A stretch of 63,973 bases of DNA from Candidatus Omnitrophota bacterium (GCA_016214285.1 JACROV010000012.1:1-63973); one strand, 5' to 3'; shown: positions 7,580 to 54,410, counted from the stretch's first letter. Numbers and translations are program-made. Notes: a model not told the origin generated them from the letters alone.

Positions 7580-7697
7580 TCAAATGCCCAATTTCAAATG
7601 ACAAATGAATTACCAATGCCAAATGACAAACTCACTGGAACACTTTGGCCATTCTTAATTTGGCATTAATTTGACATTGGTCATTTGGAATTTGTCA
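7580..7697. repeat. Heptamer-periodic inverted repeat H1 (TGACAAA / TTTGTCA type)
   Basis: Left arm tgtcaaa tgcccaa tttcaaa tgacaaa; right arm tttgaca ttggtca tttggaa tttgtca; between hemB and hemL. Confidence 0.8.
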
Positions 7698-8690
7698 TTA
7701 ACCTAGCCATTTCAATGCCTCTTGTGCATGATAGGTAATAATAATATCCGCCCCGGCCCGTTTGATGGACGTGAGGGTCTCCAGGACAACCTCTTTTTCA
7801 TCGATCCAGTTTTTGGCGGCTGCCGCCTTGACCATTGAATATTCGCCGCTCACGTTGTAAGCGGCAACGGGTACGGTCAATTCCCGGCGCAAGAGCGCGA
7901 CGATGTCTAAATATGCCAATGCCGGTTTGACCATCACGATATCGGCGCCTTCACAAACATCTTGCCGCGCTTCTTTAAGGGCTTCACGCCCATTGGCAGG
8001 GTCCATCTGGTACGTCGCGCGGTCGCCGAACTTTGGAGGTGATCCGGACGCTTCCCTGAATGGTCCATAATAGGCGGAAGCGTATTTGACCGCGTAGGAC
8101 AAAATGCCGACGTTGGATAAATTATTTTTGTCCAGGTTTTCCCGGATCGCCTGGACGCGGCCGTCCATCATATCTGACGGAGCGACGAAGTCAGCGCCGG
8201 CTTGCGCGTGCGCCAGTGCCATCTTGGCCAGCAGCGGAAGCGATTTGTCATTGTCGATGACGCCGCCTGTGACGACTCCGCAATGTCCGTGGCTCATGTA
8301 GGCGCACAGACATACGTCGGTTATTACCAGAAATTCCGGGAATTCTTTTTTAATTTTACGGATGACGGCAGGGATAACCGCGTCGGCGGCGTACGCCCGG
8401 CTGGCGCGGGTATCTTTGGCGGCCGGGATACCGAACAAAAGACACGCCTGGCCGCCGGCTTTACGGTAAACTTCAACGGCCTTGACCAGAAGGTCCGGCG
8501 AATACCGGAAGACCCCCGGCATCGAGACGATGGGTTCCTTCTTGTTGGTCCCTTCGACGACAAAAAAAGGCTGGATGAGATCGTCGGGCGTCAGCGTTGT
8601 CTCCCGGACGAGATTACGCAGCGTTGGCGACGCCCGCAGCCGGCGGTACCTGTTTCGTCTCTTATCTCTCATCTTGGTTTTCCCAACCAC
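7698..8690 (-). CDS. hemB: Porphobilinogen synthase (Zn-dependent); true start may be 8672
   Basis: DVCLCAYMSHGHCG, APSDMMDGRV, YGPFREA, YQMDP, MVKPALAYLD and AYNVSGEYSM. Confidence 0.97.
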   Translation of the reverse strand: MVGKTKMRDKRRNRYRRLRASPTLRNLVRETTLTPDDLIQPFFVVEGTNKKEPIVSMPGVFRYSPDLLVKAVEVYRKAGGQACLLFGIPAAKDTRASRAYAADAVIPAVIRKIKKEFPEFLVITDVCLCAYMSHGHCGVVTGGVIDNDKSLPLLAKMALAHAQAGADFVAPSDMMDGRVQAIRENLDKNNLSNVGILSYAVKYASAYYGPFREASGSPPKFGDRATYQMDPANGREALKEARQDVCEGADIVMVKPALAYLDIVALLRRELTVPVAAYNVSGEYSMVKAAAAKNWIDEKEVVLETLTSIKRAGADIIITYHAQEALKWLG

Positions 8691-8739
8691 AATTCTACCA
8701 CCCTACCGCGAAAAGGCAATTGTTGCCGCACGCGGCAAT

Positions 8740-9165
8740 TTAGAAAGAAGTGGAAAGTATGACGTGGGTGGTCGCAAACTTTTCCTGTTTGGTCTTCGGC
8801 TTGATAATAATTTCGACATCCCGGTCCAAAGAATTCAACAATAGGGTTATGCCTTTGATGAACAGTGCAACAGGATTTCGTGCCCATCGTATGCTGGAAG
8901 TGGTAGTCAAGGGCATAACCCTATTCAACAATTCAAAAAGATGATCCAGAGAGAACATGCTGAGTTTGCCGTTCATAAGGCAGGAAACTTTGGGTTGAGG
9001 AATATCAAGTAATTCTGAAGCGGCTTTTTGGGTCAAACCACGATTTTTGATAATTTCTGCTACGCGGGACATAATCTGAGCGCGTGCCATAACTCTTTCA
9101 GGATGGGCAACCCCGATATCGACAAAAATATTATCACTTCCTCGATGGGCTTTTTCTTTATTCAT
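8740..9165 (-). CDS. XRE-family HTH antitoxin (HigA-like), with a 30-aa in-frame MITE insertion
   Basis: GSDNIFVDIG, LTQKAASELLDIPQPKVSCLMNGKLSMFSLDHL. Removing 90 nt restores LFELLNSLDRDVEIIIKP. Confidence 0.85.
   Translation of the reverse strand: MNKEKAHRGSDNIFVDIGVAHPERVMARAQIMSRVAEIIKNRGLTQKAASELLDIPQPKVSCLMNGKLSMFSLDHLFELLNRVMPLTTTSSIRWARNPVALFIKGITLLLNSLDRDVEIIIKPKTKQEKFATTHVILSTSF
8842..8923. mobile_element. MITE-A copy 2: 82 bp, 8-bp TSD TTCAACAA
   Basis: Identical to 5224-5305. Flanks 8834-8841 and 8924-8931 are identical to each other and differ from the copy-1 flanks. Confidence 0.95.
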
Positions 9166-9359
9166 GATTTGTTCACCTCATTTATAATTCCGGCCCCTCC
9201 GGCCCCTTTTAACGGCCTGGCAGTTGCCGGCTTTTGACCTCTCTGAACCTCAAAGAGCGCAAACCCCACATCCTGCCTTACTTCTTCAGGAAGCTCCTTA
9301 AGATTTTCCCTGGATGAGCCAATCCAACTTAATGGCTTTAATGCTTGTTCTTCGTTCAT
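9162..9359 (-). pseudogene. Truncated RelE/HigB-like (Gp49-type) toxin
   Basis: KPLSWIGSSRENLKELPEEVRQDVGFALFEVQRG..PLKG.GGAG matches the N-terminal half of the family. Only 65 aa; the usual YR..Y and VLHAFQKK half is absent. Overlaps the antitoxin start (ATGA). Confidence 0.75.
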
Positions 9360-9464
9360 AATATGCCATATTTGGTATAATTGTGCAACTCCCTTTTGTC
9401 TGCATTATTTGCACTATTTTATTCGCCCTGTTCATATCCATGCACTTTCTTCAAAATACTCATG

Positions 9465-9499
9465 ACCGTCGCGAGCCACTGTAACATACGGTCAGCCGC
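9465..9499. repeat. 35-bp direct repeat, copy 1 (candidate att site)
   Basis: ACCGTCGCGAGCCACTGTAACATACGGTCAGCCGC, identical at 17178-17212; imperfect similarity extends to about 65 bp. Confidence 0.9.
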
Positions 9500-9656
9500 G
9501 GGTATCAACAAAAACTTTCTTTTTTGTTATCTGATTGTTAATCATAGGATTGTATAAAATGTTAGCGTCATGCAGAGGTTGACAAAATGTTCAAAATTTT
9601 CCAAAACATCGTACTCGTTCATCGGTTCCCCTATTCATTATTTGTTAACAGCAGTA

Positions 9657-16619: not shown

Positions 16620-17071
16620 CGATAAATGACTTTCGCGGACACGCTCGCTAAGCGGCCAAATGTCAAGAAGCGTTAGACTCACTACACTAGTACTTTGTCA
16701 GAAAAGTTTTTAATAGTTGATTCCTCTGAACCTTTGAGGAAATCAACTATTAAAAACAAAATTGACAAAGTACTAGCGCTACAATTTTATGCAGAGCTTC
16801 GGGGGGAAAAAGTGGCCGGTCGGCCACTTCTGTCTTTGTCCTTGAGTCCTTTGATTCGCTCTTTTGCAAATCGTTCTCGCCAGCCAAGCACTGTATTGAC
16901 GGCGATTCCCGGTTTTCGAGCGATCGTTTTATTGCCCAAACCTTTCGCGGCCTGAAGAATGATTTTCGCCCGGCAAACATCTCGTTGCGCTGATTTGCTC
17001 TTCCGTACAACTGACTCAAGGGTTTTATACTCATTGTTTGTTAACTTGATCTTTATATTTGGTTTTAACAA
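16620..17071 (-). pseudogene. Decayed IS630-family transposase (HTH part only), frameshifted and interrupted by MITE-B
   Basis: RAKIILQAAKG..NKTIAR....NTVLGWRERF...GLKD..RSGRP, continuing in other frames as PEALHKIVAL and WPLSERVRE; no DDE domain. Confidence 0.85.
16687..16776. mobile_element. MITE-B: 90-bp near-perfect hairpin with CTAG at both ends
   Basis: CTAGTACTTTGTCA...TGACAAAGTACTAG terminal IR plus an internal IR TTTTTAATAGTTGATT / AATCAACTATTAAAAA. Confidence 0.85.
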
Positions 17072-19673: not shown

Positions 19674-19866
19674 GAAACAAGGTACAAATAAAATTCAAAT
19701 CCCAAGCACCAAACTACAAACAATTTACAAATTCCAATGACCAAAATTATCAAATCTGATGATAGTTAAAAATATTTGTCATTTGGATTTAGGTATTGTG
19801 TATTGTTTGTGATTTGGAATTTGTTTATTGGATATTCTTTGGTTATTGTTTCCTGGTAATTGGGAT
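19665..19866. repeat. Heptamer-periodic inverted repeat H2 (CAAA/TTTG type)
   Basis: ..ttcaaa tcccaag caccaaa ctacaaa.. paired with ..tttgtga tttggaa tttgttt attggat.. Confidence 0.8.
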
Positions 19867-19867
19867 T

Positions 19868-20308
19868 TTATTTATACAGGTGCTCCAGTTCGATTTTAAG
19901 CGAATCCAGGCTCAAACAAACATCCCGGAAAAGAAATATCAGCGCGAGAATAAAGCAGGCGAGGCTTGCCGTGAAGAATATTTTGATGAGCGCGATCAGC
20001 TGGATGTTGAAGGCGAGCGTTGAGAACAGCATCAGCATGATGGAACTGACGAAGAACATGCTGACGGCGACCAGCCCGATGGCGGTCTGCAAAATACGGC
20101 AGCGCCGGTAAATGATATCGATCTGCGCGCGTATGCTGGGGGTCTCCTTGGCCGGGGCGGTTTTAAGCTCAGCGGTAAACGTACGGATACGGTCTATACT
20201 GCGGCCCAGGCGGTTGGTCATGGATAAAAGCACCAGCCCCAGTCCGGAAATAAAAATGCATGGCGCGATGGATGCCTGCAGACTTTGGATGAGATTTTCG
20301 GTTGGCAT
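19868..20308 (-). CDS. DUF2721-like membrane protein
   Basis: SIAPCIFISGLGLVLLSMTNRLGRSIDRIR; three hydrophobic segments. Confidence 0.8.
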   Translation of the reverse strand: MPTENLIQSLQASIAPCIFISGLGLVLLSMTNRLGRSIDRIRTFTAELKTAPAKETPSIRAQIDIIYRRCRILQTAIGLVAVSMFFVSSIMLMLFSTLAFNIQLIALIKIFFTASLACFILALIFLFRDVCLSLDSLKIELEHLYK

Positions 20309-20369
20309 ATCTTTTGTGTATAACCTAGAATTGCAAAATTGTCAATCTTTCACTGGAAGAAGCCTGCTT

Positions 20370-20503
20370 TAAATCCGAAGCACGAAATCCGAAATACGAA
20401 ACAAATAAAAAATTCAAAATCTAAAATATAAAACAACCTGTTTTGATATTTGAATTTAAAGTTTTGGATTTGTTTCGTGCTTCGATATTCGGATTTCGAA
20501 TTT
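20370..20503. repeat. Heptamer-periodic inverted repeat H3 (CGAA/TTCG type)
   Basis: aaatccgaagcacgaaatccgaaatacgaaacaaat ... atttgtttcgtgcttcgatattcggatttcgaattt. Confidence 0.85.
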
Positions 20504-22626: not shown

Positions 22627-22712
22627 GATTGGTAAATGGTTAATGGTAAATGGTTATTGGTTAATGGATTCTTTGACTATTAACCATTTACTATGTACCA
22701 TTAACCATTAAC
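22627..22712. repeat. Heptamer-periodic inverted repeat H4 (TGGTTAA/TTAACCA type)
   Basis: tggtaaa tggttaa tggtaaa tggttat tggttaa ... ctattaa ccattta ctatgta ccattaa ccattaa. Confidence 0.85.
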
Positions 22713-23527: not shown

Positions 23528-23650
23528 TTTAGAATTCGAAGCACGAAATTCGAAATCCGAAACAATATCTAAATTCTAAACGCTCAGTTTAGGATATTAG
23601 AATTTAGAATTTTAGGTTTGTTTCGTGCTTCGTGCTTCGAATTTCGTGTT
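23528..23650. repeat. Heptamer-periodic inverted repeat H5 (CGAA/TTCG type)
   Basis: ttcgaagcacgaaattcgaaatccgaaac ... gtttcgtgcttcgtgcttcgaatttcg. Confidence 0.85.
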
Positions 23651-23659
23651 TATATGTCT

Positions 23660-24835
23660 TTATGTCCGAAACGGCATCCGGCGTTCCTGTATGGGCAAAA
23701 CGAAACTGAAGGTCGTTCCCTTGCCCAGAGTTGATTCCACCGCGATCTTTCCTCCATGCCGGAGAATGATCTCTTTACAAATGGCCAGCCCGAGCCCCGT
23801 GCCGCCTTTTTCATTCTTTTCCGCGGATTCGAGCTGCTGGAACTTTTGGAAAAGTTTTGGGAAATCCTGCTCGGCGATGCCCTTGCCCGTATCGGTGATG
23901 TTGACGATGATATGGTTGTTGGCGGGTTTGTTTTCGGTTTTGATGGTAATACCGCCGTGTTGTGTGAATTTGATCGCGTTACTGACAAGATTGTTTAACA
24001 CTTGAATGATGCGATCCTTGTCAAAAGGTACCTGGGACAGATCTTTGTCCAACTCGGCCTTAAGATATAATCCCCGGCTTTTGGCAACGTCTTGCTGGGC
24101 GTAAACGACTTCGTCAATGACCTCATTGATCCCCTGGATCTTGAAGTCCATTTGCATCTTTCCGGACTCGATCTTGGTCAGATCCAGGATGTCGGAGACC
24201 AGCCGCTGGAGATGCTCCACGCTTTTCTGCGCGCGGCCCAGGACTTCCTCCTGTTCGTGGTTGATCTCGCCGGCCATCCGCTTGCAGACCAGGTCGATCG
24301 CGATCTTGATGGAGGCCAGCGGTGTACGCAGTTCATGTGATACGGTCGAGGTGAACTCCCTCTGCAGCTTGTACATGTCGACAAGTTTTTTATTGGAGAT
24401 CTCCAGTTCATCCTGACGCCGTTTGGTCTCCGCGAACAATCCCTTGTTTTCCTCGACCAGGTCATAATGGGCGATCGCCTGGCGTACCGTGGCCAGCAGT
24501 TCCGTCGTTTTCCAGGGCTTGCTGATAAAGCGGTAGATCTCCCCCTGGTTGATGGCCTCTTCCACCATGGGAAAATCGGCATAGCCGGTAAAAAGGATAC
24601 GGACGACATCCGGGTGATTCATCTTGACCTCTTGCAGGAATTTTACGCCCAGCATGACCGGCATGCGGTGATCACAGATAACGACTTTGATGTTTTCCTG
24701 GTTGAGTATTTTGCGGGCGTGTTCGATGTCTATTGTCGCCGCAACGCCGTAATGTTCCTTGATGAACAGCCGCTGAATACCGTCAATAATGCTTTCTTCG
24801 TCATCGACAAACAATGCCTGGTTTTCCTTGTTCAC
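23660..24835 (-). CDS. Hybrid histidine kinase (N-terminal receiver + HisKA + HATPase)
   Basis: FVDDE, ICDHRMP, ISKPW, SHELRTPL, NLVSNAIKF, DTGKGI and GTGLGLAIC. Confidence 0.92.
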   Translation of the reverse strand: MNKENQALFVDDEESIIDGIQRLFIKEHYGVAATIDIEHARKILNQENIKVVICDHRMPVMLGVKFLQEVKMNHPDVVRILFTGYADFPMVEEAINQGEIYRFISKPWKTTELLATVRQAIAHYDLVEENKGLFAETKRRQDELEISNKKLVDMYKLQREFTSTVSHELRTPLASIKIAIDLVCKRMAGEINHEQEEVLGRAQKSVEHLQRLVSDILDLTKIESGKMQMDFKIQGINEVIDEVVYAQQDVAKSRGLYLKAELDKDLSQVPFDKDRIIQVLNNLVSNAIKFTQHGGITIKTENKPANNHIIVNITDTGKGIAEQDFPKLFQKFQQLESAEKNEKGGTGLGLAICKEIILRHGGKIAVESTLGKGTTFSFVLPIQERRMPFRT

Positions 24836-27597
24836 GAGCCTTTTCCCTTTTCTTTGTTGATCGGCAGCATGACGGTAAAGGTCGCCCCTTCCCCGATCTT
24901 CGACTGCACGGTCATACGTCCGTTATGTTTTTTGATGATCTCATAGCTGATGCTTAACCCCAGGCCCGTCCCCTGGCCAGTGGGTTTTGTCGTAAAGAAC
25001 GGGTCGAATATTTTATTCAAAATTTCCGGAGGGATCCCCTTGCCGGTATCGCGCACGTCGACGCACACGAATCCGTCCTGCGTGTAGGTCTTGATCGCGA
25101 TGGTGCCCGACCCTTCAATGGCGTGCAGGGCGTTGACGATCAGATTGATGAACACCTGTCCCAGCCGCTGGGGGCTGCACTCGATGATCGGCGTGTCGCC
25201 GTATTTTTTTTCCAGCTTGGCCTTGTATTTGATTTCGTTCTGGACGATCGTGAGGATACTTTCAATGACCTCTTCGATCTTGACGCGTTCCAGTATGTTC
25301 TTATCCTCGCGCGAGAAGGCACGCAAGTCCGTGACTATTTTCTGGATGCGGTCGATACCGTTACGGTTATGCTGTAATAACTTGCTCGTGTCGCCGATGA
25401 TATAATCCATGTTGATCTCTTCCTTAAGTTTGTTTATTTCTTCAACGATGGATTTCGCTTTTGTCAAATCTTCCTGCTCAACGCTTTCCTTGAGATGGTC
25501 AGCCATCTTGAGGACTTTGGCATAATCGGCTATGTATTGCTCCAGTATTTCCATGTTACTGCTGATAAATCCCACGGGATTGTTGATCTCGTGCGCCACC
25601 CCGGCGGCCAGCTGGCCGACAGAGGCCAGTTTCTCCGACTGCACAAGCTGGTTTTGCGTGGTTTTGAGCGCCTCATAGGTGGTGCTGAGGTCCTGGAATG
25701 TCTGGCGCAGGATCCTTTCCTTGTCGGCAACTTCTTTATACGCTTCACGCAGCTCATTCTCCCGGGTTTTGCGTTCGGTGATGTCGCGAATTGTGACGAT
25801 GATGATGTTTTCCATGGCGGTTTTGACGGTCCCTAGACTGATCTCAATCGGAATTTCCCTGCCGTCTTTGGTCATGCCGAAAAGGTTTCCCCCCTCCCCC
25901 ATGGGCCTGGTCCTGGCCTCTTTGGAAAAATCCTGACACTGCCGGACATGCCGGGATTTCAGATGCTCCGGCAGGAAGATTTCCGAAGTTTGCCCCAGCA
26001 ATTCCGCGCGGTTGTAGCCGAACATTTTTTCGGCCTGTGTATTGACGAGTGTTATTTCCCGTTTGTCGTTGACGATGAGCAGCGCGTCCGGAGCGCCTTC
26101 GAGAATTGCTTCGAGTTTTTTTTGGGAAGATTTGCGTTCGGTGATGTCGCGGATAAAGGCGTTAAATTGCCGTTCTTCATTGGTGACGGTAGACCAAACG
26201 GTGATTTCAACGGGAAACTCATGGCCTTCACGGTGCAACGCGGGCAGTTCCAGCGTTTTCCCGATGATCGGCCCCTCACCGGTTTCCAGGAAATGCTTTA
26301 ATCCTTTGAGATGGGCTTCACGGTATTGAGGAGGGATGATCGTCTTTTCCAGCGATTTTCCAAGGGCCTGCGCACGCGTCCACCCGAATACGCGCTCTGC
26401 CGCCTGATTCCAGTCTCTGAGGACCCCTTGCTGGTCCATGGAAACAAAGGCGTCATTCGCGGTCGCGATAATGCTTTCAAAGTATGTTTTCGAGACAGTC
26501 GTTTTCCGCAGATCTTCGGTCATGGCATTAAAGGCCTTGGCCACTTGCCCGAATTCATCTTTTGAGTTAATGGCAACTCTTGTTTGAAAATCGCCCCGGG
26601 CCACTTTTTCAACCGCCTCCGCGATGGTTACTAAGGGCGTTGTCAGCTTGCGGGAGGCGAGCATGGACAAGATGATAACAATCAAAGCAACTATTAATCC
26701 GCCGGCAAACGTAATGACCCTTAGCCGTTCGACGGCGGCAAAGGCCATGTCCGTGTTCGAAAGGACAAACCCAAACCAGCCCAGGTCTGGAAAATCAGTA
26801 TGCCCTCTCGCGTAATCATAGCCGATTAAAGATTCCACGCCATGTTCATTCTTTTCGATCAGATAACCTTCATGTTTCTGGCTGGCCAACAAGGCCGACC
26901 GCAGGCCTTCTTTAATGAGGTTAACCTTAAAAACATCATTTTGCTCAAATTCAGGCGCGGCAATAACAAGCCCGTCATTGCGCGCCAACATAAAATGGTT
27001 GCCCTTGTTCCCTCCTTTTTCTTCTTCCGCGGATAACCGCGTATCCCTCGAGAGCGTCTGTGCCTTCCATCCGGCCAGAAGGACCCCCAAGACCTTGTCT
27101 TTCTCGAACTCCGCTTTAATGGGAAAAGAAAAGGTTATCTCCCAGGCCTTGCTTATGTCGCTGTAATGGACATCGCTTGACTGGGCCTTGTCCGTTTTTG
27201 TATAATTAAAAAACTCTGTGCCCCTGAAGTCTTTTTCCAGCATCTCTGGCAGGGTTGAGGCGACAACCACGCCTTTGGGATTTATAACGCTAATGTGGGT
27301 AAAATCCCGGGTTTCTTTGCTTATGTCCATTAAAAACGATTGTATCGTCGCGTCCATGTCGCCGGTGAAAACCTCCTGCATAATGGACATCTGTGACCAG
27401 TGTTTGACAGTCTTATAAACATCCCCAAAGTTCTGTTCGGCGTTCTCTATCCGCGCGCGGGCCAACTGTTGAAAAGTTGAGCCTAAATTCTTTTTTATCG
27501 CCTGCTGGCCATTTTCATACGCGAATTTCCCCATGCCCATCAAGGGGACCAGAGAAAGGCACAGGAATAACAGGGTATTTTTAGTCCTGATTTTCAT
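24832..27597 (-). CDS. Membrane sensor kinase (Cache-like, HAMP, 2x PAS, NtrB-type kinase)
   Basis: Two TMs, [52 protein letters not shown] and DPFFTTK. Confidence 0.92.
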
Positions 27598-33824: not shown

Positions 33825-33982
33825 TGGGCCTTAAGCACGAAATCCGATCGATATTCGATCTTCGAATTCACAAGTCCTTCTTTCCAGGGAGTTTATACAA
33901 GCAATTGTAGTATAAATATAATAGGTTCTAAATGCAACGACAGGATTGGATTTTTATTCGTTCTCATTCGGCCCGGAATTAT

Positions 33983-36399: not shown

Positions 36400-36480
36400 T
36401 AGGTTATCCGGTTAACCGGTTATCCGTGACTTGGAAATCCGGATAGCCGGATCTCCGGATTCCCGGATAAGCGGAACGAA
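36400..36480. repeat. Heptamer-periodic inverted repeat H7 (CCGGATA type)
   Basis: ggttatc cggttaa ccggtta tccg ... ccggata gccggat ctccgga ttcccgg ataagcgg. Confidence 0.7.
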
Positions 36481-36496: not shown

Positions 36497-38704
36497 TTAA
36501 ACTGAATAAAATCTTTTGCCATTCTCTTGCAGTTTTAATAAATAAGTTGTTGGTTGAAAACGTTGCGCTTGAAGCTTTTCCTCCAACCGTTTGAGTTCGG
36601 ATACGATAGCCGAAACTCCCAGTGTGTCCGCGTAGCGTAATAATCCTCCGCGAAACGCCGGAAATCCCGCGCCGAAGATCATGCCGACGTCAATGGCGCC
36701 CGGCGCGTCAACGATCCCTTCTTCCAGACAGCGTGCCGCTTCGTTGATCATCACATACAGCATGCGCCGCAGGATTTCTTCTTGATCCGGATGGGCGCCT
36801 CGGACACTCCCGGGGTGTCCTGGCTGTATTGCCGGATTCGGCTGGACGCCTCTGACACTCCCGGAGTGTCCTGGCTGATGGAGGTAAAATCCTTTCCCTG
36901 ATTTTTTTCCGAGAAACCCTTGGGCGTAAATTTTTTCAAAGATCTCCACCGGTTTGAACCGCTCTCCTAACCCGGCTTCGAGGATATGCAGGACTTTACT
37001 GCCCACATCAAGACCCACTTCATCGGTCAAAGTGAACGGACCCATCGGCATGCCAAAATCCGTCATGATCTTGTCAATGGCGACGACTGAATTGCCCTCT
37101 TCCAGGAGCCGGCCGGCTTCGTTGATGTATCCCAGCAGGATCCGGTTGACCACGAATCCGCAGGAATCCTTGACGACGATCGGTGTCTTGCCCAGACGCC
37201 TGACCAGCGCCAGAGTGCCTGCCAGTGTTTCCTTGCTGGTTTGCGCGGTCATGATGATCTCAACGAGCGGCATCTTGTGGACGGGGTTAAAAAAATGCAA
37301 GCCGATCACTTTGGAAGGATCTTTTGTTTCCCCCGCCATTTCCGTGACGGATAACGCCGAGGTATTGGTCGCCAGGATCGTTTGCCCTCCGGCCGCGGCG
37401 CTTAATTCCCGGAAAACCTTGCGTTTGACCTCCATGTTCTCGACCACCGCCTCGATGGCGATGCCGGTATCGGCAAATCCGCTGTAATCCAGCGTCGGGG
37501 TGATCTTGTCCATTTTGACGGCCGCTTCGTAAGGCTTCATGCGGCGCTTTTTTACGGCGTCGCGGTAAAGTTTTGCCGCCGAGCGCACGCCAAGCGCGAG
37601 CGCTTCGTAGTTGATGTCTTTTAAACGCACCCAGATATTTGCATAGCTTAGCAATTGAGCGATGCCGCCGCCCATCACTCCAGCGCCGATGATCCCGCAT
37701 TTTTCGACAGGTTTTGGCGTAATACCTTCTACGTTAAGCTTGCGATATTGTTCCGAAAGATAGAAAACATGGATGAGGTTCTTTGCGACAGCGGTTGCGG
37801 CCAGTTCGTTGAATTCCCGCGCTTCTACGTCAAGACCTTTAGTCCGGTCCAGGTAAAAATTTTTCTTGATGACGGCGATGGCTTTAAGGGGCGCCGGGTA
37901 AAATCCTTTGGTATTTTTCAAAACGGACTGGATGGATTGCTGGAAGATAAACCATTGGCCGAGCAAAGACCCCTCGAGGATGCTGGCAAGTCCTTTGGTT
38001 TTTCGGCGCGCGTATTTGTCAGGGACAATGCGGCCTTGCCGGATATCTTCGATAAACGTGTTGAGATAATGGTCCAGGCCATTTTGCGGCGCCAGGCGAT
38101 CGACCAAACCCAAGCGCAGCGCTTTGCTACTGTCTACGGATTTTCCGGTGAGGATCATGTTCAGGCCATCGGGCAAGCCGATCAACCGTGGCAAGCGGTA
38201 CGTCCCGCCAAAAGCGGGAAAGATCCCGAGATTGACTTCGGGCAAGCCGATACGTGTTTTTTCATTGAACGTTGCCAGGCGGTATTGGCACGCGAGCGCC
38301 AGCTCACAGCCGCCGCCCAAGGCCGCTCCATCAATGACGGCAATGGTGGGTACGGCCAGGTCTTCGAGCTTGTTAAGGATGTCCTGCCCGGCTTTGGCTT
38401 TTTGCAAGCCCTCTTCGGACCGCGTGATCCCTTCGATCTCCTTGATGTCCGCTCCGGCGATAAAAATGTCTTTCTTTTTGCTGACGATGACGACGGCTTT
38501 TAAAGAAGATTTACCGGCCGGCAGGCTCTTCCCCGCGGGCAGGGAGGCTCCCTGCGGGAGGAACCTCTGGCCTGCGGGAGCAAGCGAGTCCAGAATTTTA
38601 TCCAATTCCTGCAGCGCGGCCGCGGTCAAAAGGTTGACCTTGGAATCCGTTTGGTCGAATTCGATGAAGCCGGTGTTGTTGTCTTCACGGTAGGTGATTG
38701 ACAT
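36497..38704 (-). CDS. fadB: Fatty-acid oxidation complex alpha subunit (enoyl-CoA hydratase / 3-hydroxyacyl-CoA dehydrogenase), with two palindrome-derived insertions
   Basis: FIAGADI, GGGCELALAC, LPEVNLG, GAGVMGGG, TNTSAL, HFFNPV and GFVVNR. Confidence 0.93.
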   Translation of the reverse strand: MSITYREDNNTGFIEFDQTDSKVNLLTAAALQELDKILDSLAPAGQRFLPQGASLPAGKSLPAGKSSLKAVVIVSKKKDIFIAGADIKEIEGITRSEEGLQKAKAGQDILNKLEDLAVPTIAVIDGAALGGGCELALACQYRLATFNEKTRIGLPEVNLGIFPAFGGTYRLPRLIGLPDGLNMILTGKSVDSSKALRLGLVDRLAPQNGLDHYLNTFIEDIRQGRIVPDKYARRKTKGLASILEGSLLGQWFIFQQSIQSVLKNTKGFYPAPLKAIAVIKKNFYLDRTKGLDVEAREFNELAATAVAKNLIHVFYLSEQYRKLNVEGITPKPVEKCGIIGAGVMGGGIAQLLSYANIWVRLKDINYEALALGVRSAAKLYRDAVKKRRMKPYEAAVKMDKITPTLDYSGFADTGIAIEAVVENMEVKRKVFRELSAAAGGQTILATNTSALSVTEMAGETKDPSKVIGLHFFNPVHKMPLVEIIMTAQTSKETLAGTLALVRRLGKTPIVVKDSCGFVVNRILLGYINEAGRLLEEGNSVVAIDKIMTDFGMPMGPFTLTDEVGLDVGSKVLHILEAGLGERFKPVEIFEKIYAQGFLGKKSGKGFYLHQPGHSGSVRGVQPNPAIQPGHPGSVRGAHPDQEEILRRMLYVMINEAARCLEEGIVDAPGAIDVGMIFGAGFPAFRGGLLRYADTLGVSAIVSELKRLEEKLQAQRFQPTTYLLKLQENGKRFYSV
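36797..36877. repeat. Two 30-bp palindromic units inside fadB (28/30 identical, 51-bp period)
   Basis: GCCTCGGACACTCCCGGGGTGTCCTGGCTG (36797-36826) and GCCTCTGACACTCCCGGAGTGTCCTGGCTG (36848-36877). Confidence 0.9.
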
Positions 38705-38850
38705 TGGTAAATTGTTAATGGTGAATGGTTAATAGTGAATGGTGGATAGTGAATGGTGAATAGTTAATTGATCTGCAACTGGGTTTTAATGCACTAATCA
38801 TTAGTTGGAAGTATTTACAATTTTACCATTTACCATTAACTATTTACCAT
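38705..38850. repeat. Heptamer-periodic inverted repeat H8 (TGGTGAA/TTACCAT type)
   Basis: tggtgaa tggttaa tagtgaa tggtgga tagtgaa ... ttaccat ttaccat taactat ttaccat. Confidence 0.85.
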
Positions 38851-40125
38851 TTACCGTTCTAGTATAACCGCCGCGCCCTGGCCGCCGCCGACGCATAACG
38901 AAACCAGGCCGGTGTTGAGATTGTGGCGATTCATGTGCTTGAGCATGGTGATGATCAACCGCGTTCCGGTTGTCCCGACCGGATGCCCGAGGGCGATGGC
39001 GCCGCCGTTGACGTTGAGGATCCCGGGGTCAATCGTGCCGGCGAACCCTTCATAACTGAATTCTTTGGCGAAGGCCGGAGAATCCAAGTCTTTGAGACAG
39101 GCCAGGACCTGGGCGGCAAACGCTTCGTTAATTTCGATGGCCTGAATATCTTTTAATTTCATCCCGGCTTTTTTAAGGACTTGAGGAATGGCGTGCGCCG
39201 GCCCGATGCCCATCCGGTGCGGTTCAACGCCGACAAAGGCGTAAGCTCTGATAAAGCCCAACGGTTTTAAATTCAATTCCTTTGCTTTTTGTTCGCTCGT
39301 GATGAGTAATGCCGCCGCGCCATCGGTGACCTGGCTGGAGTTGCCGACCGTCACCGTGCCCGAGCGCCGGTCGAAGTAAGGTTTTAATTTGGCCAGGGCT
39401 TCGATCGTCTGACCTTCGCGCGGGCCGTTATCGTGTTCAACAGCCGATTTATACGCCGGCGGCGGAATGACAGGGACGATCTCCTCACGCAAAAACGTTT
39501 TTCCACGGAGGGCGCGCAAATGACTTTCCAGGGCGAACGCGTCCTGTTCTTCGCGCGTGATGCCGAATTCTTTGGCCAGGGTCTCGGCCGTTGAGCCCAT
39601 GATCATTCCGCAAACGGGATCAGTTAATCCCATTTCCAATCCGGCGCGCGGTTTAAGGTAAGCCGGCTTGATCTGGCTGAGGGCTTGTAACTTTTGCGCG
39701 AACGTTTTGGCCCGGGAAAGATGGGTCAGGATCTCTTTAAGTTCTTTCGACAGGTAAAATGGAATGTTGCTCATTGATTCCGTTCCGCCGGCGATGTAAC
39801 AACTTCCTTGTCCTGATTGAATTTTCATCGCGGCCTGCGCCGCGGCTTCGATGCCCGATGCGCAATTGCGGTGCACCGTGTAGGCCGGCACGGTCTCCGG
39901 GATACCGCTTAAAAGGGCGATCACCCGCGCGATGTTGGCGGTATCCGCCGGCTGGCTGACATTGCCGAAGATCACTTCGTCGATCTGGCGTACGTCGATA
40001 CCGGTGCGCTCCAGGAGTTCCCGTGTGGCGATGCGCCCGAGTTCCCGGGCGTCGATATCCTTGAATTCCGTACCCATCCTGCAAAATGGAGTGCGGATAC
40101 CGTCTATGATGGCGATGCGATTCAT
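38851..40125 (-). CDS. fadA: Acetyl-CoA acyltransferase (thiolase)
   Basis: Start MNRIAII at 40125; HRNCASG, GNSSQVTDGA, NEAFA, GAIALGHPVG and LCVGGGQG. Confidence 0.95.
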   Translation of the reverse strand: MNRIAIIDGIRTPFCRMGTEFKDIDARELGRIATRELLERTGIDVRQIDEVIFGNVSQPADTANIARVIALLSGIPETVPAYTVHRNCASGIEAAAQAAMKIQSGQGSCYIAGGTESMSNIPFYLSKELKEILTHLSRAKTFAQKLQALSQIKPAYLKPRAGLEMGLTDPVCGMIMGSTAETLAKEFGITREEQDAFALESHLRALRGKTFLREEIVPVIPPPAYKSAVEHDNGPREGQTIEALAKLKPYFDRRSGTVTVGNSSQVTDGAAALLITSEQKAKELNLKPLGFIRAYAFVGVEPHRMGIGPAHAIPQVLKKAGMKLKDIQAIEINEAFAAQVLACLKDLDSPAFAKEFSYEGFAGTIDPGILNVNGGAIALGHPVGTTGTRLIITMLKHMNRHNLNTGLVSLCVGGGQGAAVILER

Positions 40126-40127: not shown

Positions 40128-40270
40128 GTTTAAATCCCAATAAACAAATCTCAAACCACAAACAATTCACAAATCCTAATGACCAAAATTACAAATAATT
40201 GTTTCGGTCATTTGAATTTCGGTGTTGGGTATTGTTTGTAATTTGGGATTTGTGATTTGGTTATTCAGCA
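40128..40270. repeat. Heptamer-periodic inverted repeat H9 (CAAA/TTTG type)
   Basis: tcccaa taaacaa atctcaa accacaa ... ttgtttg taatttg ggatttg tgatttg. Confidence 0.8.
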
Positions 40271-44057: not shown

Positions 44058-44130
44058 TAGTCACCAAGTCACCCGTCACCATCGTGTTGGCCGGTGACTT
44101 TGTGACCTTGTGACGTTGTGTCCTTGTGCT
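44058..44130. repeat. Heptamer-like inverted repeat H10 (GTCAC/GTGAC type)
   Basis: agtcacc aagtcac ccgtcac ... ggtgact ttgtgac cttgtga cg. Confidence 0.7.
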
Positions 44131-48114: not shown

Positions 48115-48215
48115 AATGCTAAAATTTTTAATCCAAATGTTCAAAACAGATTGTTTAATGCTTTAGATTTTGAGTTTTTTATTTGTTTCGTATTTCGTAT
48201 TTCGTGCTTCGAATT
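48115..48215. repeat. Partial heptamer repeat H11 (mainly the TTCG arm)
   Basis: atttgtttcgtatttcgtatttcgtgcttcgaattt, matching the right arms of H3, H5 and H14. Confidence 0.75.
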
Positions 48216-48221
48216 TAACCG

Positions 48222-50768: not shown

Positions 50769-50771
50769 ATA

Positions 50772-50852
50772 GGTTATCCGGGGATCAGGGAATCCGGAGA
50801 TCAGGAAACAAGTTCATTCCGGATATCCTGATATCCTGATGTCCGGATATCC
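50772..50852. repeat. Heptamer-periodic repeat H12 (GGATATC type), overlapping the gcvPB 3' end
   Basis: ggttatccggggatcagggaatccggagatcagg ... ccggatatcctgatatcctgatgtccggatatcc. Confidence 0.75.
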
Positions 50853-52306
50853 TTTTGCGTTAGGAAGTAGTTTGTGCTCACATCCCGCGCGGCTTTGACT
50901 TCATCGGGACGGGAGACCGGTGTCGATTGTGGCCGGCCGGCCACAATCTCGGGTTGTGTTTTGCTAAGATCGTCGATCTTGAGCATAACATCGATGAAAT
51001 GGTCGAGCGTTTGTTTGGATTCGCTTTCGGTCGGTTCGATCATGATGGATTCCTTGACGGTCAGCGGAAAATAGATCGTCGGTGGATGGATCCCTTCATC
51101 GATGAGGAATTTGGCGATGTCGAGGGCATGCACGCCGCGTTTGGCCTGACGAGCCGCCGAGAACACCGCCTCGTGCATGCAGAACCGGTCGAAGGCGAGC
51201 TCGAAGCGGTCTTTGAGCCGTTCGCGGATGTAGTTGGCGCTAAGGACCGCGTGGTCGGTCGTTTCCTTCAAACCTTCTTTACCTAATAACAACGTGTACG
51301 CGTAAGCTCTTAAAATAATGGCGAAGTTGCCGTAGAACGACGCGATATACCCGATCGATTCCGGATAATCATAATTGAGCGCGTAGGAACCGTCTTCTTT
51401 TTTGATGACACGGGATACGGGCAAGTATGGGACGAGTTTTTTGTTCACGCCCACCGGACCGGCCCCGGGCCCGCCGCCGCCGTGCGGCGTGGAAAATGTT
51501 TTATGCAGGTTGATGTGCATCACGTCGAAGCCGACGTCCCCGGGGCGGAAGCGTCCCAGGACGGCGTTAAGGTTGGCGCCGTCGTAATACATGATCCCGT
51601 CGACGGAATGGACCAGCCGCGCGATCTCGTCGATCTGCGAGTGGAAGATGCCGTGCGTGTCGGGGCAGGTGATCATCAGTCCCGCCACCTCGTCGTTTAA
51701 TTTCTTTTTGAGTTCCTCGAGGTTCATCACGCCGTTTTTGTCCGAGGCCACCGAGATGATCCCGTAGCCGGCGATCGCCGCGGTCGCGGGGTTGGTCCCG
51801 TGGGCGGAATCCGGGATGATGATGTATTTCTTTTTATTGCCCCTGGCCTTGTGATAGGCGGCCATCATCATGACCCCGGTCAGTTCCCCGTGCGCGCCGG
51901 CCAAAGGCTGCATGGTGAAATTGTCCATGCCGGTAATTTCGCAGAGCAATTGTTCCATTTCATAAAGGACTTCGAGTGCTCCCTGCGCCAGCTTTTCTCC
52001 TTGCTTTAATTGCGGCAAAAGCGGATGGAGTCCGGCGAAGGCGGGCATTTGCGCGATGTGTTCATTGAATTTGGGATTATATTTCATGGTGCAGGAGCCC
52101 AGTGGATAAAATTGCGTGTCCACGGAAAAATTCTGCTGGGAAAGCAAAGTGAAATGACGCACCACGTCGAGTTCGCTCACCTCGGGCAACCCGCATTCCT
52201 GTTTGCGTTGATATTTTTCCGGGACCTGGATATGGACGTCGATATCCGGGGAAGGATTGCGGTATCCCCTTTTTCCCGGAACGCTCTTTTCGAAGATCAA
52301 TTGCAT
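50801..52306 (-). CDS. gcvPB: Glycine dehydrogenase subunit 2
   Basis: YPLGSCTMKYNP, AGAHGE, SAHGTNPA, LHKTFSTPHGGGGPG and EPTESES. Confidence 0.96.
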   Translation of the reverse strand: MQLIFEKSVPGKRGYRNPSPDIDVHIQVPEKYQRKQECGLPEVSELDVVRHFTLLSQQNFSVDTQFYPLGSCTMKYNPKFNEHIAQMPAFAGLHPLLPQLKQGEKLAQGALEVLYEMEQLLCEITGMDNFTMQPLAGAHGELTGVMMMAAYHKARGNKKKYIIIPDSAHGTNPATAAIAGYGIISVASDKNGVMNLEELKKKLNDEVAGLMITCPDTHGIFHSQIDEIARLVHSVDGIMYYDGANLNAVLGRFRPGDVGFDVMHINLHKTFSTPHGGGGPGAGPVGVNKKLVPYLPVSRVIKKEDGSYALNYDYPESIGYIASFYGNFAIILRAYAYTLLLGKEGLKETTDHAVLSANYIRERLKDRFELAFDRFCMHEAVFSAARQAKRGVHALDIAKFLIDEGIHPPTIYFPLTVKESIMIEPTESESKQTLDHFIDVMLKIDDLSKTQPEIVAGRPQSTPVSRPDEVKAARDVSTNYFLTQKDIRTSGYQDIRNELVS

Positions 52307-52314
52307 GGAGCCTT

Positions 52315-52468
52315 ATATTTCAAATCCCAAGCACCAAATTACAAACAATAGACAATCCCAAAATAACAATGACCAAAACATTGTTGCCTTCATCGAGGTT
52401 TAGGATTTTGGTAATTAGGTATTGTAATTTGTTTGTGGTTTGGAATTTGTTTATTGGAATATTTACCA
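52315..52468. repeat. Heptamer-periodic inverted repeat H13 (CAAA/TTTG type)
   Basis: ttcaaa tcccaag caccaaa ttacaaa ... tttgttt gtggttt ggaattt gtttatt gg; arms similar to H2. Confidence 0.85.
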
Positions 52469-52469
52469 T

Positions 52470-53816
52470 TTAGTGGATAACTTCCCTTAAAGCCTTTGCG
52501 TATGCCAAGATTTCTTCCTTGGTCCGCTTCTCGGTCACGGCCACGATCATGTAGTTCTCCATGCCCGGATAATACCGGCCCAGGGGGAATCCGGCCGCGA
52601 AGCCTTTGGTGATCATCGCTTCCACGACCTGCGAAGCGTCTTTGGGCAAGACGACCGTAAATTCATTGAAGGTCGGCGAAGAACGTTTGACCGCCACACC
52701 GGGGATCTTTTCGATCTCTTGCCGGGCAAATTCGGCCTTGTCCAAATTTAACTGGGCCAGTTCTTTGAGCCCTTCTTTTCCCAGAAGCGACATGTAGATC
52801 AGCGACTGCACCGCGCACAATGAAACGTTCGTGCAGATGTTTGACGCCGCTTTTTCGCGGCGGATGTGCTGTTCCCTGGCCTGGAGCGTGTTGACGAAAC
52901 AGCGCTTGCCGTTTTTGTCGACCGTCTGGCCGACAATGCGTCCGGGCATGGCGCGGATGAATTTTTTGCGCGTGGCGATGATCCCCAGATACGGCCCGCC
53001 GAAATTAAGCGGCAGGCCGAGGCTCTGACCCTCGCCGGTGGCGATGTCCGCGCCCATTTCCCCGGGGGTTTTCAGGATTCCCAGCGAGAGCGGATAAACG
53101 CTTTCGATAACGAGCGCGCCTTGTTCATGCGCCTTGATTACGATGTCCGCGTGATCGTCAATGGCGCCGAAAAAATTCGGATTCTGCAAAATGACCGCGG
53201 CCGTATCGTTATCCAGCAGTTTTCTGATCTGCGGACGGTCGCTTTGCCCGTGGACAACGGGGGTTTCGGTAAATTCATAGTGAAGATTGCTTGTGTAGGT
53301 CTTGAGGATCTTCCGGTAAATGGGGCTTACGCCGCCATCCATGATGATCTTGTGCCGGCCGGTCAGGCGCGCCGCCATCATCGCGGCTTCGTAAAGGGCC
53401 GTGCCACCGTCGTAAAGCGAGGCGTTGGCCACTTCCATTCCGGTCAAGGTGCAGATAGCGCTTTGATATTCATACAAAGCCTGCAATGTCCCTTGCGAGC
53501 ATTCCGGCTGATACGGGGTGTAAGCGGTCGCAAATTCTCCCCGGGAGATCAGGGCCGTCACCGCGGCCGGGATAAAATGGTCGTAATATCCTCCGCCGAT
53601 AAAAGGGATCAGCCCCGCGGCGTTTTTGGCCGCCAGGCGGCTGAGATGTTCGGTTACTTCAAATTCGGATTTGCCGGAAGGAATATTGAAAGACTTCGGG
53701 GCGTGGGAACGCTTGATATCGGCGAACAGTTCATCTATCGATGAAACGCCGATCGTTTTTAACATTGCCTCAACATCTGCGGGGGTATTGGCGATGAACG
53801 AAGCCACAGGGACCAC
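52470..53816 (-). CDS. gcvPA: Glycine dehydrogenase subunit 1
   Basis: YTPYQPECSQG, NASLYDG, GEGQSLG, FGGP and REQHIRREKA. Confidence 0.96.
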   Translation of the reverse strand: MVPVASFIANTPADVEAMLKTIGVSSIDELFADIKRSHAPKSFNIPSGKSEFEVTEHLSRLAAKNAAGLIPFIGGGYYDHFIPAAVTALISRGEFATAYTPYQPECSQGTLQALYEYQSAICTLTGMEVANASLYDGGTALYEAAMMAARLTGRHKIIMDGGVSPIYRKILKTYTSNLHYEFTETPVVHGQSDRPQIRKLLDNDTAAVILQNPNFFGAIDDHADIVIKAHEQGALVIESVYPLSLGILKTPGEMGADIATGEGQSLGLPLNFGGPYLGIIATRKKFIRAMPGRIVGQTVDKNGKRCFVNTLQAREQHIRREKAASNICTNVSLCAVQSLIYMSLLGKEGLKELAQLNLDKAEFARQEIEKIPGVAVKRSSPTFNEFTVVLPKDASQVVEAMITKGFAAGFPLGRYYPGMENYMIVAVTEKRTKEEILAYAKALREVIH

Positions 53817-53822
53817 CTTGAT

Positions 53823-54209
53823 TTAGCCGATGCTTTCCAAAAATTTTTGATATTCTTCAGCGGTCATGAGGTTGGAGGCCTCTTCCTTGTCTGACATCTG
53901 GACTTTGGCGAGCCACCCTTTTTCGAAAGCGGATTTATTGATGATGCCGGGGTCGGATTCCAGGCGGGTATTGACTTCGATGACTTTGCCGGAGACGGGT
54001 GCGAAAATATCGTTGGCCGCTTTCACGGATTCTATCGACGCGAATTCCTCGAATTGTTCGACCTCGCCCCCGACTTCGGGAAGCTCCACGAAGGTGATGT
54101 CCCCCAACGCTTCCTGCGCGTAATCGGTGATGCCGGTGGTGGCGATATTGTCTTCAATGCTCACCCACTCGTGTTCTTTTGTGTACAGGTAGTGATCAAC
54201 GACTTCCAT
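53823..54209 (-). CDS. gcvH: Glycine cleavage H protein
   Basis: YTKEHEW, GITDYAQEALGDI, ESVKA (lipoyl Lys). Confidence 0.97.
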   Translation of the reverse strand: MEVVDHYLYTKEHEWVSIEDNIATTGITDYAQEALGDITFVELPEVGGEVEQFEEFASIESVKAANDIFAPVSGKVIEVNTRLESDPGIINKSAFEKGWLAKVQMSDKEEASNLMTAEEYQKFLESIG

Positions 54210-54244
54210 TGTGTTGCTCCTTTATATTGTAAATCTAGTTTAAT

Positions 54245-54410
54245 TTTAAAATCCGAAGCACGAATATCGTCAGCCAGAGGCTGATCCGCATTAGGCGGAA
54301 AATCCGAAACAAATCCAAAATTTTAAATCCAAAGCGATAAACGTTTACGTATTTGAATTTTTGATTTAGATATTGTTTCGTATTTCGCGCTTCGTATTTC
54401 GTGCTTCAGA
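54245..54410. repeat. Heptamer inverted repeat H14 (CGAA type) with a nested 30-bp GC-rich cassette at 54270-54299
   Basis: aaatccgaagcacgaatatcg[tcagccagaggctgatccgcattaggcgga]aaatccgaaacaaat ... gtttcgtatttcgcgcttcgtatttcgtgcttc. Confidence 0.85.

Follow-up and report, generated by a model that had tools for sequence, protein, structure and literature searches.

Hairpins of phased short repeats at gene junctions

The window analyzed here is the whole stretch of 63,973 nt from Candidatus Omnitrophota bacterium (GCA_016214285.1 JACROV010000012.1:1-63973), in which intergenic inverted repeats occupy a series of gene junctions, including hemB/hemL, thiolase/fadB, gcvT/gcvH, gcvPA/gcvPB, and that of a split transketolase (Table 1). 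A first-pass annotation had named both the repeats and their flanking genes. All 14 named loci were recovered, including the short remnant E6, the genes were as named, and each repeat folds as a long imperfect hairpin. The arms are inverted arrays of about 4 to 9 degenerate units of 7 nt, or 8 nt in some families. The 7-nt period initially ascribed to all types was found for most of them, but the CCGGATA (36400 and 50771) and GTCAC (44058) elements have a period of 8 nt. The initial scheme of five sequence types needed one change, as the element at 7580 belongs not to the CAAA type but to a separate AATGACA family.

Table 1. Hairpin elements of the window and occupancy of the orthologous junctions in related genomes (G numbers)
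Element	Position	Description	Orthologous site
E1	7578..7702	AATGACA-type heptad hairpin, hemB stop to hemL start; gene-less counterpart of the C31 PF05635 cassette	Four other occupants or empty; five different occupants in six genomes
E2	19676..19877	CAAA-type heptad hairpin with an additional outer CAAGAAACAATAACC arm pair	Empty in G006 (1-nt gene overlap) and G003 (4 nt); outer arm pair only in G002
E3	20369..20503	CGAA-type heptad hairpin; conserved promoter-like box downstream	Empty 8-nt spacer in G003; different hairpins in G006 and G002
E4	22628..22712	TGGTTAA-type heptad hairpin; complementarity 0.83, alternative registers 7 nt apart	CCGGATA-type or AGTCGTA-type elements
E5	23532..23651	CGAA-type heptad hairpin; histidine kinase and response regulator genes on either side	No element in G006 and G003; TGGTTAA type in G004; CGAA outer arms in common with G002, where another hairpin is nested within
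E6	33838..33873	Short remnant or mini-hairpin of CGAA units; start codon just downstream	Missing in the orthologous spacer of G001
E7	36400..36470	CCGGATAn hairpin, 8-nt period, registers 8 nt apart	ATCTCGT-type heptad hairpin in G001, G006, and G004; empty in G005 and G009
E8	38703..38856	TGGTTAA/TGGTGAA-type heptad hairpin; occupies the entire thiolase/fadB spacer	Empty in the closest relative G001, which reads TAACGAAATC-ATG; ACCAGTA-type element in G006 and G004
E9	40129..40266	CAAA-type heptad hairpin	CAAGGGG-type element in G001 and G004; CCGGATA remnant in G006; empty in G005 (9 nt)
E10	44058..44130	GTCACnnn hairpin, 8-nt period	Common to G001 and G006
E11	48119..48216	Truncated CGAA-type element between two transketolase genes; one outer arm absent	Empty (-1 to 29 nt) in 6 of 6 relatives covering it
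E12	50771..50855	CCGGATAn/CCTGATAn hairpin, 8-nt period	ATCTCGT-type element in G004, at the same point and likewise lengthening the ORF; CCGGATA-type element in G003
E13	52314..52463	CAAA-type heptad hairpin between gcvPA and gcvPB	gcvPA and gcvPB overlap, no element, in G001 and G004
E14	54245..54413	CGAA-type heptad hairpin between gcvT and gcvH	Element-free 20-29-nt spacers in G001 (two contigs), G004, and G009; CAAGGGG-type element in G006
E14 insert	54268..54299	32-nt double mini-hairpin (CGTCAGCC..GGCTGA, TCCGC..GGCGGA) nested in one E14 arm	

RNAfold gave stems of -26 to -60 kcal/mol for the window elements, whose loops span 5 to 60 nt and hold no ORF. Gapless arm complementarity ranged from 0.44 to 0.83 and was at least 0.63 except in E10 and E14. 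Its maxima, of near-equal value, fell at multiple registers spaced by exactly 7 or 8 nt (e.g., 0.69 at offsets -3 and -10 for E3), so that the earlier suggestion of slipped pairing registers proved quantitatively right. The 32-nt insert of E14 recurs in two further CGAA-type copies, C57:6546 and C68:32330.

Abundance and placement of the elements in the genome

A census of the 1.82-Mb Omnitrophota genome found about 204 element loci, totaling 20.8 kb and at least 12 arm types, with a density of about one copy per 9 kb and about one in eight gene junctions occupied. An excess of period 7 over shuffled DNA had been set as a test beforehand, and the genome scan revealed 197 four-unit arrays of period 7 compared with 3 in shuffled genomes; arrays of period 8 numbered 38 compared with 1. 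Intergenic autocorrelation peaked at lags 7, 14, and 21 (0.284 versus 0.260 in dinucleotide shuffles), and inverted-repeat candidates amounted to 195 versus 28 in shuffles. Seven was the best arm period in 111 of 309 inverted repeats and in 81 of the 99 that were strongly periodic. Furthermore, family members have a common non-periodic layout, and one layout of 130 bp, including its non-periodic parts and asymmetric units, was found at more than 40 loci of the genome. Paralogous copies are just 78-90% identical, which argues against a recent burst from a single master copy. Some elements sit within the loops of others.

The elements are found, in either orientation, after a stop codon and ahead of the start codon or ribosome-binding site that comes next. 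They start -5 to +10 nt from the stop codon in 53% of cases and overlap the end of the ORF in 14%. The last codons and stop codon of the upstream gene are sometimes supplied by the element itself, one arm of E12 coding for the final 16 residues and stop codon of GcvPB, and downstream ribosome-binding sites are preserved. The link to co-directional operons proposed from the window was not borne out, with 129 co-directional, 25 convergent, and 16 divergent element junctions against a background of 1227, 204, and 200, respectively.

Turnover of the elements within one genus

The first-pass annotation had proposed comparing orthologous junctions for presence or absence, and occupancy indeed varied across six genomes of the same genus, most junctions being empty or holding a different arm type. 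Among the comparable junctions, the closest relatives have no element at the sites of E2, E8, E11, E13, and E14, the sites of E7 and E12 carry another arm type instead, and E10 alone is shared. At gene junctions, elements have thus inserted, disappeared, and given way to others over the lifetime of a single genus, and they are not conserved regulatory hairpins. For example, the ATCTCGT-type hairpin found at the E7 site in three relatives points to a replacement in the lineage of the window. Arms evolve through gain and loss of whole units, and the orthologous copies of E10 differ in this way.

These observations bear directly on the idea that the hairpins exist as cis-acting RNA structures under selection that set the stability, processing, or translational coupling of neighboring operon cistrons, stability and processing having been raised in the first-pass annotation. 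Such a role would account for their exact placement between stop and start codons and for the intact ribosome-binding sites downstream. The fold of the sense strand is also slightly more stable than that of the antisense strand (71:50, p = 0.068; 19:7 for CGAA and 9:2 for AATGACA), a weak bias that may reflect some selection on the RNA and leaves room for an effect of this kind. However, we consider this explanation improbable, given that the orthologous junctions of the six congeners are mostly empty or occupied by unrelated arm types, that the elements run with or against transcription at random (14 sense, 17 antisense), and that convergent and divergent junctions are used in background proportion. 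E3 moreover lies upstream of a promoter-like box and not within an operon. Nor is an RNase III at hand to process the stems, as no gene for it was detectable in this genome, in any of the six congeners, or in 39 of the 41 genomes examined from the order, an absence that rests mainly on the relatives since the genome is 88% complete. With no such gene detectable in the lineage, the elements are probably not excised from transcripts by RNase III.

Cassettes carrying a PF05635 gene share the hairpin architecture

PF05635 is the 23S rRNA intervening-sequence protein, an Avd-like four-helix bundle for which we know of no catalytic activity. Elements that enclose an ORF, whose listing had been suggested from the window, do occur: the genome holds four PF05635 genes, three of them visibly bracketed by inverted unit arrays, and PF05635 is the only gene ever found within the arms. 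The joined arms of the cassette at C31 align with gene-less hairpins, including E1, at 76-79% identity over 121-138 nt (106/137 for E1), directly supporting E1 as a putative empty shell of a PF05635 cassette. At 27 of 30 PF05635 loci sampled elsewhere in the order, the inverted repeat around the gene exceeded the shuffle maximum, and the arm period at sampled loci was nearly always 7 or 8 (7 at most loci, 8 at three). Of 121 genomes from the order, 73 contain PF05635, with a maximum of 12 per genome. We found no publication on repeat-armed PF05635 cassettes.

The elements had initially been read, as one of two options, as empty shells of a four-helix-bundle cassette. The C31 alignment upholds this for the AATGACA type, and the bracketed loci of the order agree with it. 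For the CAAA, TGGTTAA, CCGGATA, and GTCAC types, cassettes with matching arms were not found in this genome, and their link to the cassette is by architecture only. The CGAA type, an element of some 130 bp, was met solely without a gene, including in about 50 external copies, and may be a separate element that merely has the same architecture. A 29-nt stretch of its arm recurs without mismatch in 118 or more contigs that represent about nine phyla (Desulfobacterota, Planctomycetota, Acidobacteriota [Aminicenantes], Binatia, Patescibacteria, Chloroflexi, Armatimonadetes, Gammaproteobacteria, and Omnitrophota), and its right arm, including the asymmetric units, is likewise conserved in these matching copies. 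The AATGACA arm is present in three phyla.

A local and non-mobile origin, in which replication slippage makes a unit array and template switching copies it in inverted form, would fit the multiple near-equivalent pairing registers, the whole-unit differences between E10 orthologues, and the non-complementary arrays that lie adjacent to each other at the hemB/hemL junction of G001 and G006. We nonetheless consider it improbable, slightly more so than selection on RNA hairpins. The same 130-bp layout, down to its non-periodic parts and asymmetric units, is present at more than 40 loci here and again in the contigs of other phyla, and gene-less copies can be aligned from end to end with the arms that bracket a PF05635 gene. 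Least credible of all is that the elements are ordinary MITEs moved by a DDE or HUH transposase elsewhere in the genome, such as the resident IS1595 element or a Y1/RAYT-like gene: they are indeed short, gene-less, numerous, and terminally symmetric, an IS1595-derived MITE copy lies in the window at 16687-16776, and the genome has one Y1_Tnp gene, but four clean empty/filled pairs show no clear target-site duplication (none at E8, E11, and E14; a possible short duplication of the overlapping stop/start region at E13), the entire arm is periodic and repeated instead of forming a short terminal repeat, the 12 or more unrelated arm sequences have architecture alone in common, the Y1 gene has no flanking arrays, and no transposase-bearing parent with matching ends was found.

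A proposed route of spread

Taken together, these results make it probable that the elements belong, as gene-less and non-autonomous representatives, to a class of hairpin cassettes built from inverted 7- or 8-nt arrays, whose gene-carrying members hold PF05635 in the loop. Such elements would spread as selfish DNA within genomes and between phyla, mobilized by a trans-acting factor able to recognize the phased arrays. The most likely such factor would be a PF05635 oligomer supplied by gene-carrying copies, which may act with host replication or repair functions on the extruded single-stranded hairpin; no mobilizing enzyme was identified in the genome, where the single Y1-transposase-like and single reverse transcriptase genes lack flanking arrays. 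Selection would then retain only those copies that land in very short intergenic spacers. Transcribed inside operons, the retained copies would form long imperfect RNA stems, which could not be removed as rRNA intervening sequences are, since no RNase III gene is detectable in the lineage, and the loss of this enzyme may be what permits so high a density of copies.

A broader proposal, which we offer tentatively and hold to be rather doubtful, is that all phased inverted arrays with a 7- or 8-nt unit, whether or not they enclose PF05635, form one pan-bacterial mobile system. The PF05635 oligomer would recognize the arrays and, together with host replication or repair enzymes, mobilize both its cassette and the far more numerous gene-less hairpins, including the extremely conserved CGAA type found in at least nine phyla. 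RNase III loss in this order would lift the chief burden that long double-stranded RNA imposes in operons and so allow about one gene junction in eight to be occupied. If this were true, arms and relics of this system would make up much of the long-unexplained surplus of heptameric repeats between bacterial genes.

Comparison with known systems

STRR are heptanucleotide repeats whose units include TT(G/T)GTCA, and E1 holds TTGGTCA and TTTGTCA units, which is only a partial sequence resemblance. The STRR of heterocystous cyanobacteria and the TAACTGA repeats of Beggiatoaceae are, like the elements described here, intergenic tandem heptamers near start codons with suspected horizontal spread, but they are mostly direct arrays (one inverted among 170 TAACTGA sets; PMC4679880), whereas the inverted pair is the rule here. 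Another comparison is with the convergent (inverted) pairs of GGGAATC heptamer arrays of Xanthomonas, described along with a widespread overrepresentation of heptameric repeats in the intergenic DNA of bacteria (Rehm et al. 2015, PMC4692102). These are also intergenic, often paired in inverted orientation, and stem-loop capable, with repeat lengths that vary among related strains. They differ in unit sequence and are discussed as G-quadruplex formers, and that study describes no connection with PF05635 cassettes, no turnover at orthologous sites, and no identity across phyla.

REP/BIME sequences with their RAYT genes, and MITEs, are likewise abundant, short, gene-less intergenic palindromes, and REPs bracket the RAYT gene as the arms bracket PF05635. 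However, a REP is an imperfect palindrome of 20-40 nt, compared with 70-200 bp and far longer periodic arms here, and the arms enclose no Y1 transposase, since the genome's one Y1 gene, at C43, is without such flanks. MITEs are set apart by the target-site duplication, of which filled sites here show no clear trace.

The elements also resemble the intervening sequences (IVSs) of 23S rRNA in Coxiella burnetii, Leptospira, and Salmonella (PMC4990558), in which a long stem of terminal inverted repeats likewise surrounds either a small four-helix-bundle gene or no gene. Shared too are a sporadic distribution suggestive of horizontal transfer and insertion into a transcribed region without destroying its function. 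IVSs lie in helix 9, 25, or 45 of 23S rRNA, whereas 14 of 14 window elements lie between protein-coding genes, and an Rfam search of the window returned one tRNA only. RNase III excises IVSs, whereas the host lineage here has no detectable RNase III. The S23p/PF05635 ORF found in the loop of some IVSs is absent from the window elements and present in their relatives elsewhere in the genome. The elements further differ from IVSs by their roughly 200 copies per genome and by explicit 7/8-nt unit arrays that allow several pairing registers.

Unit-array hairpins occur in the window and throughout the genome

The window, contig C73 of a 104-contig, 1.82-Mb assembly (genome G000), carries nearly all of its genes on the minus strand. 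Wherever the first-pass annotation had placed an intergenic inverted repeat we found an element of 70-200 bp that folds, whichever strand is taken, into a long imperfect hairpin (-26 to -60 kcal/mol), and the gene names given for the junctions were confirmed. These elements, E1 to E14, matched no Rfam family at gathering score. The observation of intergenic unit-array hairpins is thus confirmed with corrections. The 7-nt period holds for the AATGACA, CAAA, CGAA and TGGTTAA arms, while the CCGGATAn and GTGACnTT arms have a period of 8. Furthermore, E1, previously typed as CAAA, belongs to the AATGACA family, and E11 lacks one outer arm. In the best gapless register, arm-arm complementarity was 0.63-0.83 in 10 of the 12 elements scored, with lower values for E10 (0.52) and E14 (0.44). 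It was nearly equal in registers offset by exactly 7 nt (8 nt for the three 8-mer elements), indicating that the arms are complementary as arrays and that the suggested slipped pairing registers are correct.

The same signal rises above chance across the genome. Intergenic autocorrelation at lags 7, 14 and 21 was 0.284, 0.281 and 0.277, against 0.260 in dinucleotide shuffles, and arrays of four units with a lag match of at least 72% numbered 197 at period 7 and 38 at period 8 (3 and 1 in shuffled sequence). A k-mer scan for inverted symmetry returned 195 inverted repeats versus 28 in block-shuffled sequence. The best arm period was 7 in 111 of 309 inverted-repeat candidates and in 81 of the 99 that were strongly periodic. 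These k-mer and periodic-array scans were substituted for MFE-based pair counts, which separated real from shuffled intergenic regions poorly (193 vs 97 regions with at least 30 pairs), and blastn families were used in place of consensus-unit clustering, which was too noisy. Searches with family representatives by blastn gave 204 loci totaling 20.8 kb and at least 12 arm types, a density of about one in eight gene junctions. Paralogues within the genome are only 78-90% identical, so a single recent burst is excluded.

The elements had been tied to co-directional operons. The idea that they mark operons was rejected because their junction types (129 co-directional, 25 convergent and 16 divergent) follow the genome background (1227, 204 and 200, respectively). 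Genome-wide, 53% of elements start between -5 and +10 nt from a stop codon; overlap with an ORF end was seen in 14%.

Elements are gained, lost and replaced within one genus

Syntenic regions were taken from seven relatives (six of the same genus, one of the same family), and every orthologous spacer was extracted. Sites were found empty, replaced or, in one case, shared. The sites of E2, E8, E11, E13 and E14 are empty in the closest relatives: the thiolase-fadB site of E8 reads TAA-CGAAATC-ATG in G001, gcvPA and gcvPB overlap in G001 and G004 where the window has E13, and gcvT-gcvH spacers of 20-29 nt are the empty counterparts of E14. No target-site duplication was visible at clean empty/filled site pairs. 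At the E7 site, an ATCTCGT-type heptad hairpin is present in G001, G006 and G004 and the site is empty in G005 and G009, indicating that the 8-mer element of the window is a replacement. The hemB-hemL junction has five different occupants among six genomes. Only E10 is shared (with G001 and G006), in copies that differ by whole units. These comparisons show gain, loss and replacement of elements inside one genus and exclude a conserved regulatory structure.

Such insertions are of consequence for the genes around them, as they uncouple overlapping genes (e.g., gcvPA/gcvPB), fill whole intercistronic spacers and rewrite C-termini. The gcvPB reading frame ends within one arm of E12, which supplies its final 16 codons and stop codon, so that 16 GcvPB residues come from the element. 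E12 is another case of replacement: G004 has an ATCTCGT-type element at this site, which likewise extends the gcvPB reading frame.

RNA hairpins that tune processing and stability within operons had been proposed as an alternative. The sense strand tends to fold slightly more stably than the antisense strand (71:50, Wilcoxon p = 0.068; 19:7 for the CGAA type), which is weak evidence of an RNA-level effect, and the empty or replaced orthologous sites do not support operon tuning as the reason the elements exist.

Several junctions showed additional features. The hemB-hemL spacers of G001 (L022) and G006 (L025) hold three to four AAGAAGT units followed by about four ACGAGAT or ACGAGCG units; these adjoining arrays are non-complementary, as if half of one hairpin had been joined to half of another. 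One window spacer contains the GC-rich hairpins AACCCCATGCTTCCGCATGGGG and CTACAGGCGGGAGCCTGTAG; its counterpart is an AATGACA-type heptad hairpin in G006 and G002 and an empty 20-nt spacer in G004. Elsewhere, two window genes overlap by 4 nt, and G001, G006 and G004 (L023, L025 and L028) have 1.2-1.4-kb inserts with small ORFs. A promoter-like TTGACA-17-TATACA box, conserved in G006 and G002, lies about 10 nt upstream of an ATG; E3 is upstream of this box, so that junction is probably a transcription-unit boundary.

One arm type is both gene-carrying and gene-less

The hairpins had also been suggested to be empty shells of a mobile cassette. The genome has four genes of PF05635, the 23S rRNA intervening-sequence (IVS) protein family, and inverted arrays bracket three of them. 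When joined, the arms of the cassette at C31 are 76-79% identical over 121-138 nt to gene-less hairpins including E1, which have a loop of about 5-25 nt where the cassette has its ORF. PF05635 occurs in 73 of 121 genomes of the order, with up to 12 copies each. At 30 loci from different genomes of the order, the flanking inverted repeat exceeded the maximum of 30 shuffles in 27 cases, with arms mostly of period 7 and, at three loci, of period 8. PF05635 was the only gene found inside arms: array pairs separated by as much as 3 kb held no other cargo, the remainder being ordinary genes between two separate hairpins. Support for the cassette reading is therefore direct for one type and architectural for the rest.

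Arm sequences recur in other phyla

A CGAA pattern covering 29 nt of the arm, with 26 specified bases, was matched exactly in at least 118 contigs. Among the matches listed were records from Desulfobacterota, Planctomycetota, Aminicenantes, Binatia, Patescibacteria, Chloroflexi, Armatimonadetes, Gammaproteobacteria and Omnitrophota, including two complete chromosomes. The opposite arm lay within 180 nt in 52 of 81 matches, and none of these 81 had a 300-900-nt cargo between the arms, again among the matches listed. Conservation extends to the opposite arm, which departs from an exact complement (one side has a GCA unit and the other an ATA unit) and so gives the element a polarity. With a profile built from external copies, the orientation relative to flanking genes in G000 was sense in 14 cases and antisense in 17. 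The AATGACA arm was found gene-less in Thermodesulfobacteriota, Patescibacteria and Omnitrophota. A blastn search of E3 against phage and plasmid collections gave no match, a result that is uninformative since the low-complexity filter may mask such queries, and an exact pattern scan of viral contigs matched one contig.

Nesting, slippage and a putative mode of spread

Elements are inserted in either orientation and nest in hairpin loops, and their arrays undergo whole-unit slippage. They may spread as selfish DNA, with a trans-acting factor that would read the phased arrays. No transposase associated with the arms was found, and neither the single Y1_Tnp-like gene nor the single reverse transcriptase gene of the genome is flanked by arrays.

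Smaller features are nested in the hairpins as well (see table). E14 contains a 32-nt double mini-hairpin (CGTCAGCC..GGCTGA and TCCGC..GGCGGA), which recurs at the same arm position in several CGAA elements; the G002 orthologue of E5 has it too. Loops of heptad hairpins belonging to different arm types also harbor, in one orientation or the other, a conserved element (AATAGGGTTATGCC...GGCATAACCCTAT) of about 110 nt that bears a terminal inverted repeat of its own. Rfam gave no match for this element, which is probably either another small mobile element or an RNA gene targeting hairpin loops. An IS1595-derived MITE family is nested in heptad and octad hairpins, suggesting that hairpin loops are preferred or tolerated landing sites.

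Coordinates and arm units of the elements and neighboring features (w, window)
Feature	Position	Detail
E1	w 7578-7702	AATGACA
Period-8 elements	w 36400, 50771	CCGGATAn (Tandem Repeats Finder)
Period-8 element	w 44058	GTGACnTT (Tandem Repeats Finder)
E12 arm	w 50801-50855	gcvPB 3' end
E12 site, G004	L008:4927-4997	ATCTCGT type
PF05635 cassette	C31	AATGACA units
PF05635 cassette	C24	AGTGGTAA 8-mers
PF05635 cassette	C71	ATAGACN units
32-nt double mini-hairpin	w 54268-54299; C57:6546-6711; C68:32330-32467	
~110-nt loop element	C72:6272-6462; C70:2368-2526; C83:1994-2153; C32:7142-7405; C41:26515-26740; C104:3905-3990	
~110-nt loop element	C44:2985-3201	two tandem copies
IS1595-derived MITE	w 16687-16776, 5213-5312	
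MITE nested in hairpins	C96:8874; C20:11393; C25:4901	
GC-rich hairpin spacer	w 6176-6268	
Overlapping genes	w 24831-24836	
Promoter-like box	w 20309-20365	minus strand; ATG at 20308

RNase III and comparison with known systems

Heptameric repeats have been recognized as over-represented in bacterial intergenic DNA since 2007, and we know of no accepted explanation. To our knowledge, the origin and mobility of rRNA IVSs and the function of the PF05635 family have likewise been open questions since the early 1990s. The present genome offers a dense and tractable case, with about 200 copies in 1.8 Mb, clean empty/filled sites among congeners, one arm type both with and without a gene, and arm sequence conserved across phyla.

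RNase III was not detected with TIGR02191 and PF14622 in G000, its six congeners and 39 of 41 genomes of the order; in control genomes these models recovered it from 8-9 of 14. When the order's single bona fide RNase III (from G036, on a 2.8-kb contig) was used as a tblastn query, G000 gave no match (best E = 2.3). Loss of the enzyme may extend to the entire lineage. With RNase III undetectable, hairpin stems must persist or be handled by another nuclease, and loss of the enzyme may have made them cheaper to carry. The apparent lack of RNase III across the host order suggests that hairpin-element load is linked to surveillance of double-stranded RNA.

Our literature search found no paper tying inverted heptad arrays to PF05635 cassettes or describing gene-less copies of the elements between genes. 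PF05635 has been mentioned as Avd-like (PMC10053308), and TAACTGA is the subject of a repeat study (PMC4679880). Intervening sequences of rRNA are excised by RNase III (PMC4990558), which makes them the natural analogy for the present elements, but this analogy unexpectedly breaks down because the host lineage is without detectable RNase III. In Xanthomonas, GGGAATC forms 70-75 convergent inverted array pairs per genome, in a study that also noted a general heptamer excess (PMC4692102); these are inverted heptamer array pairs, as in the elements described here.
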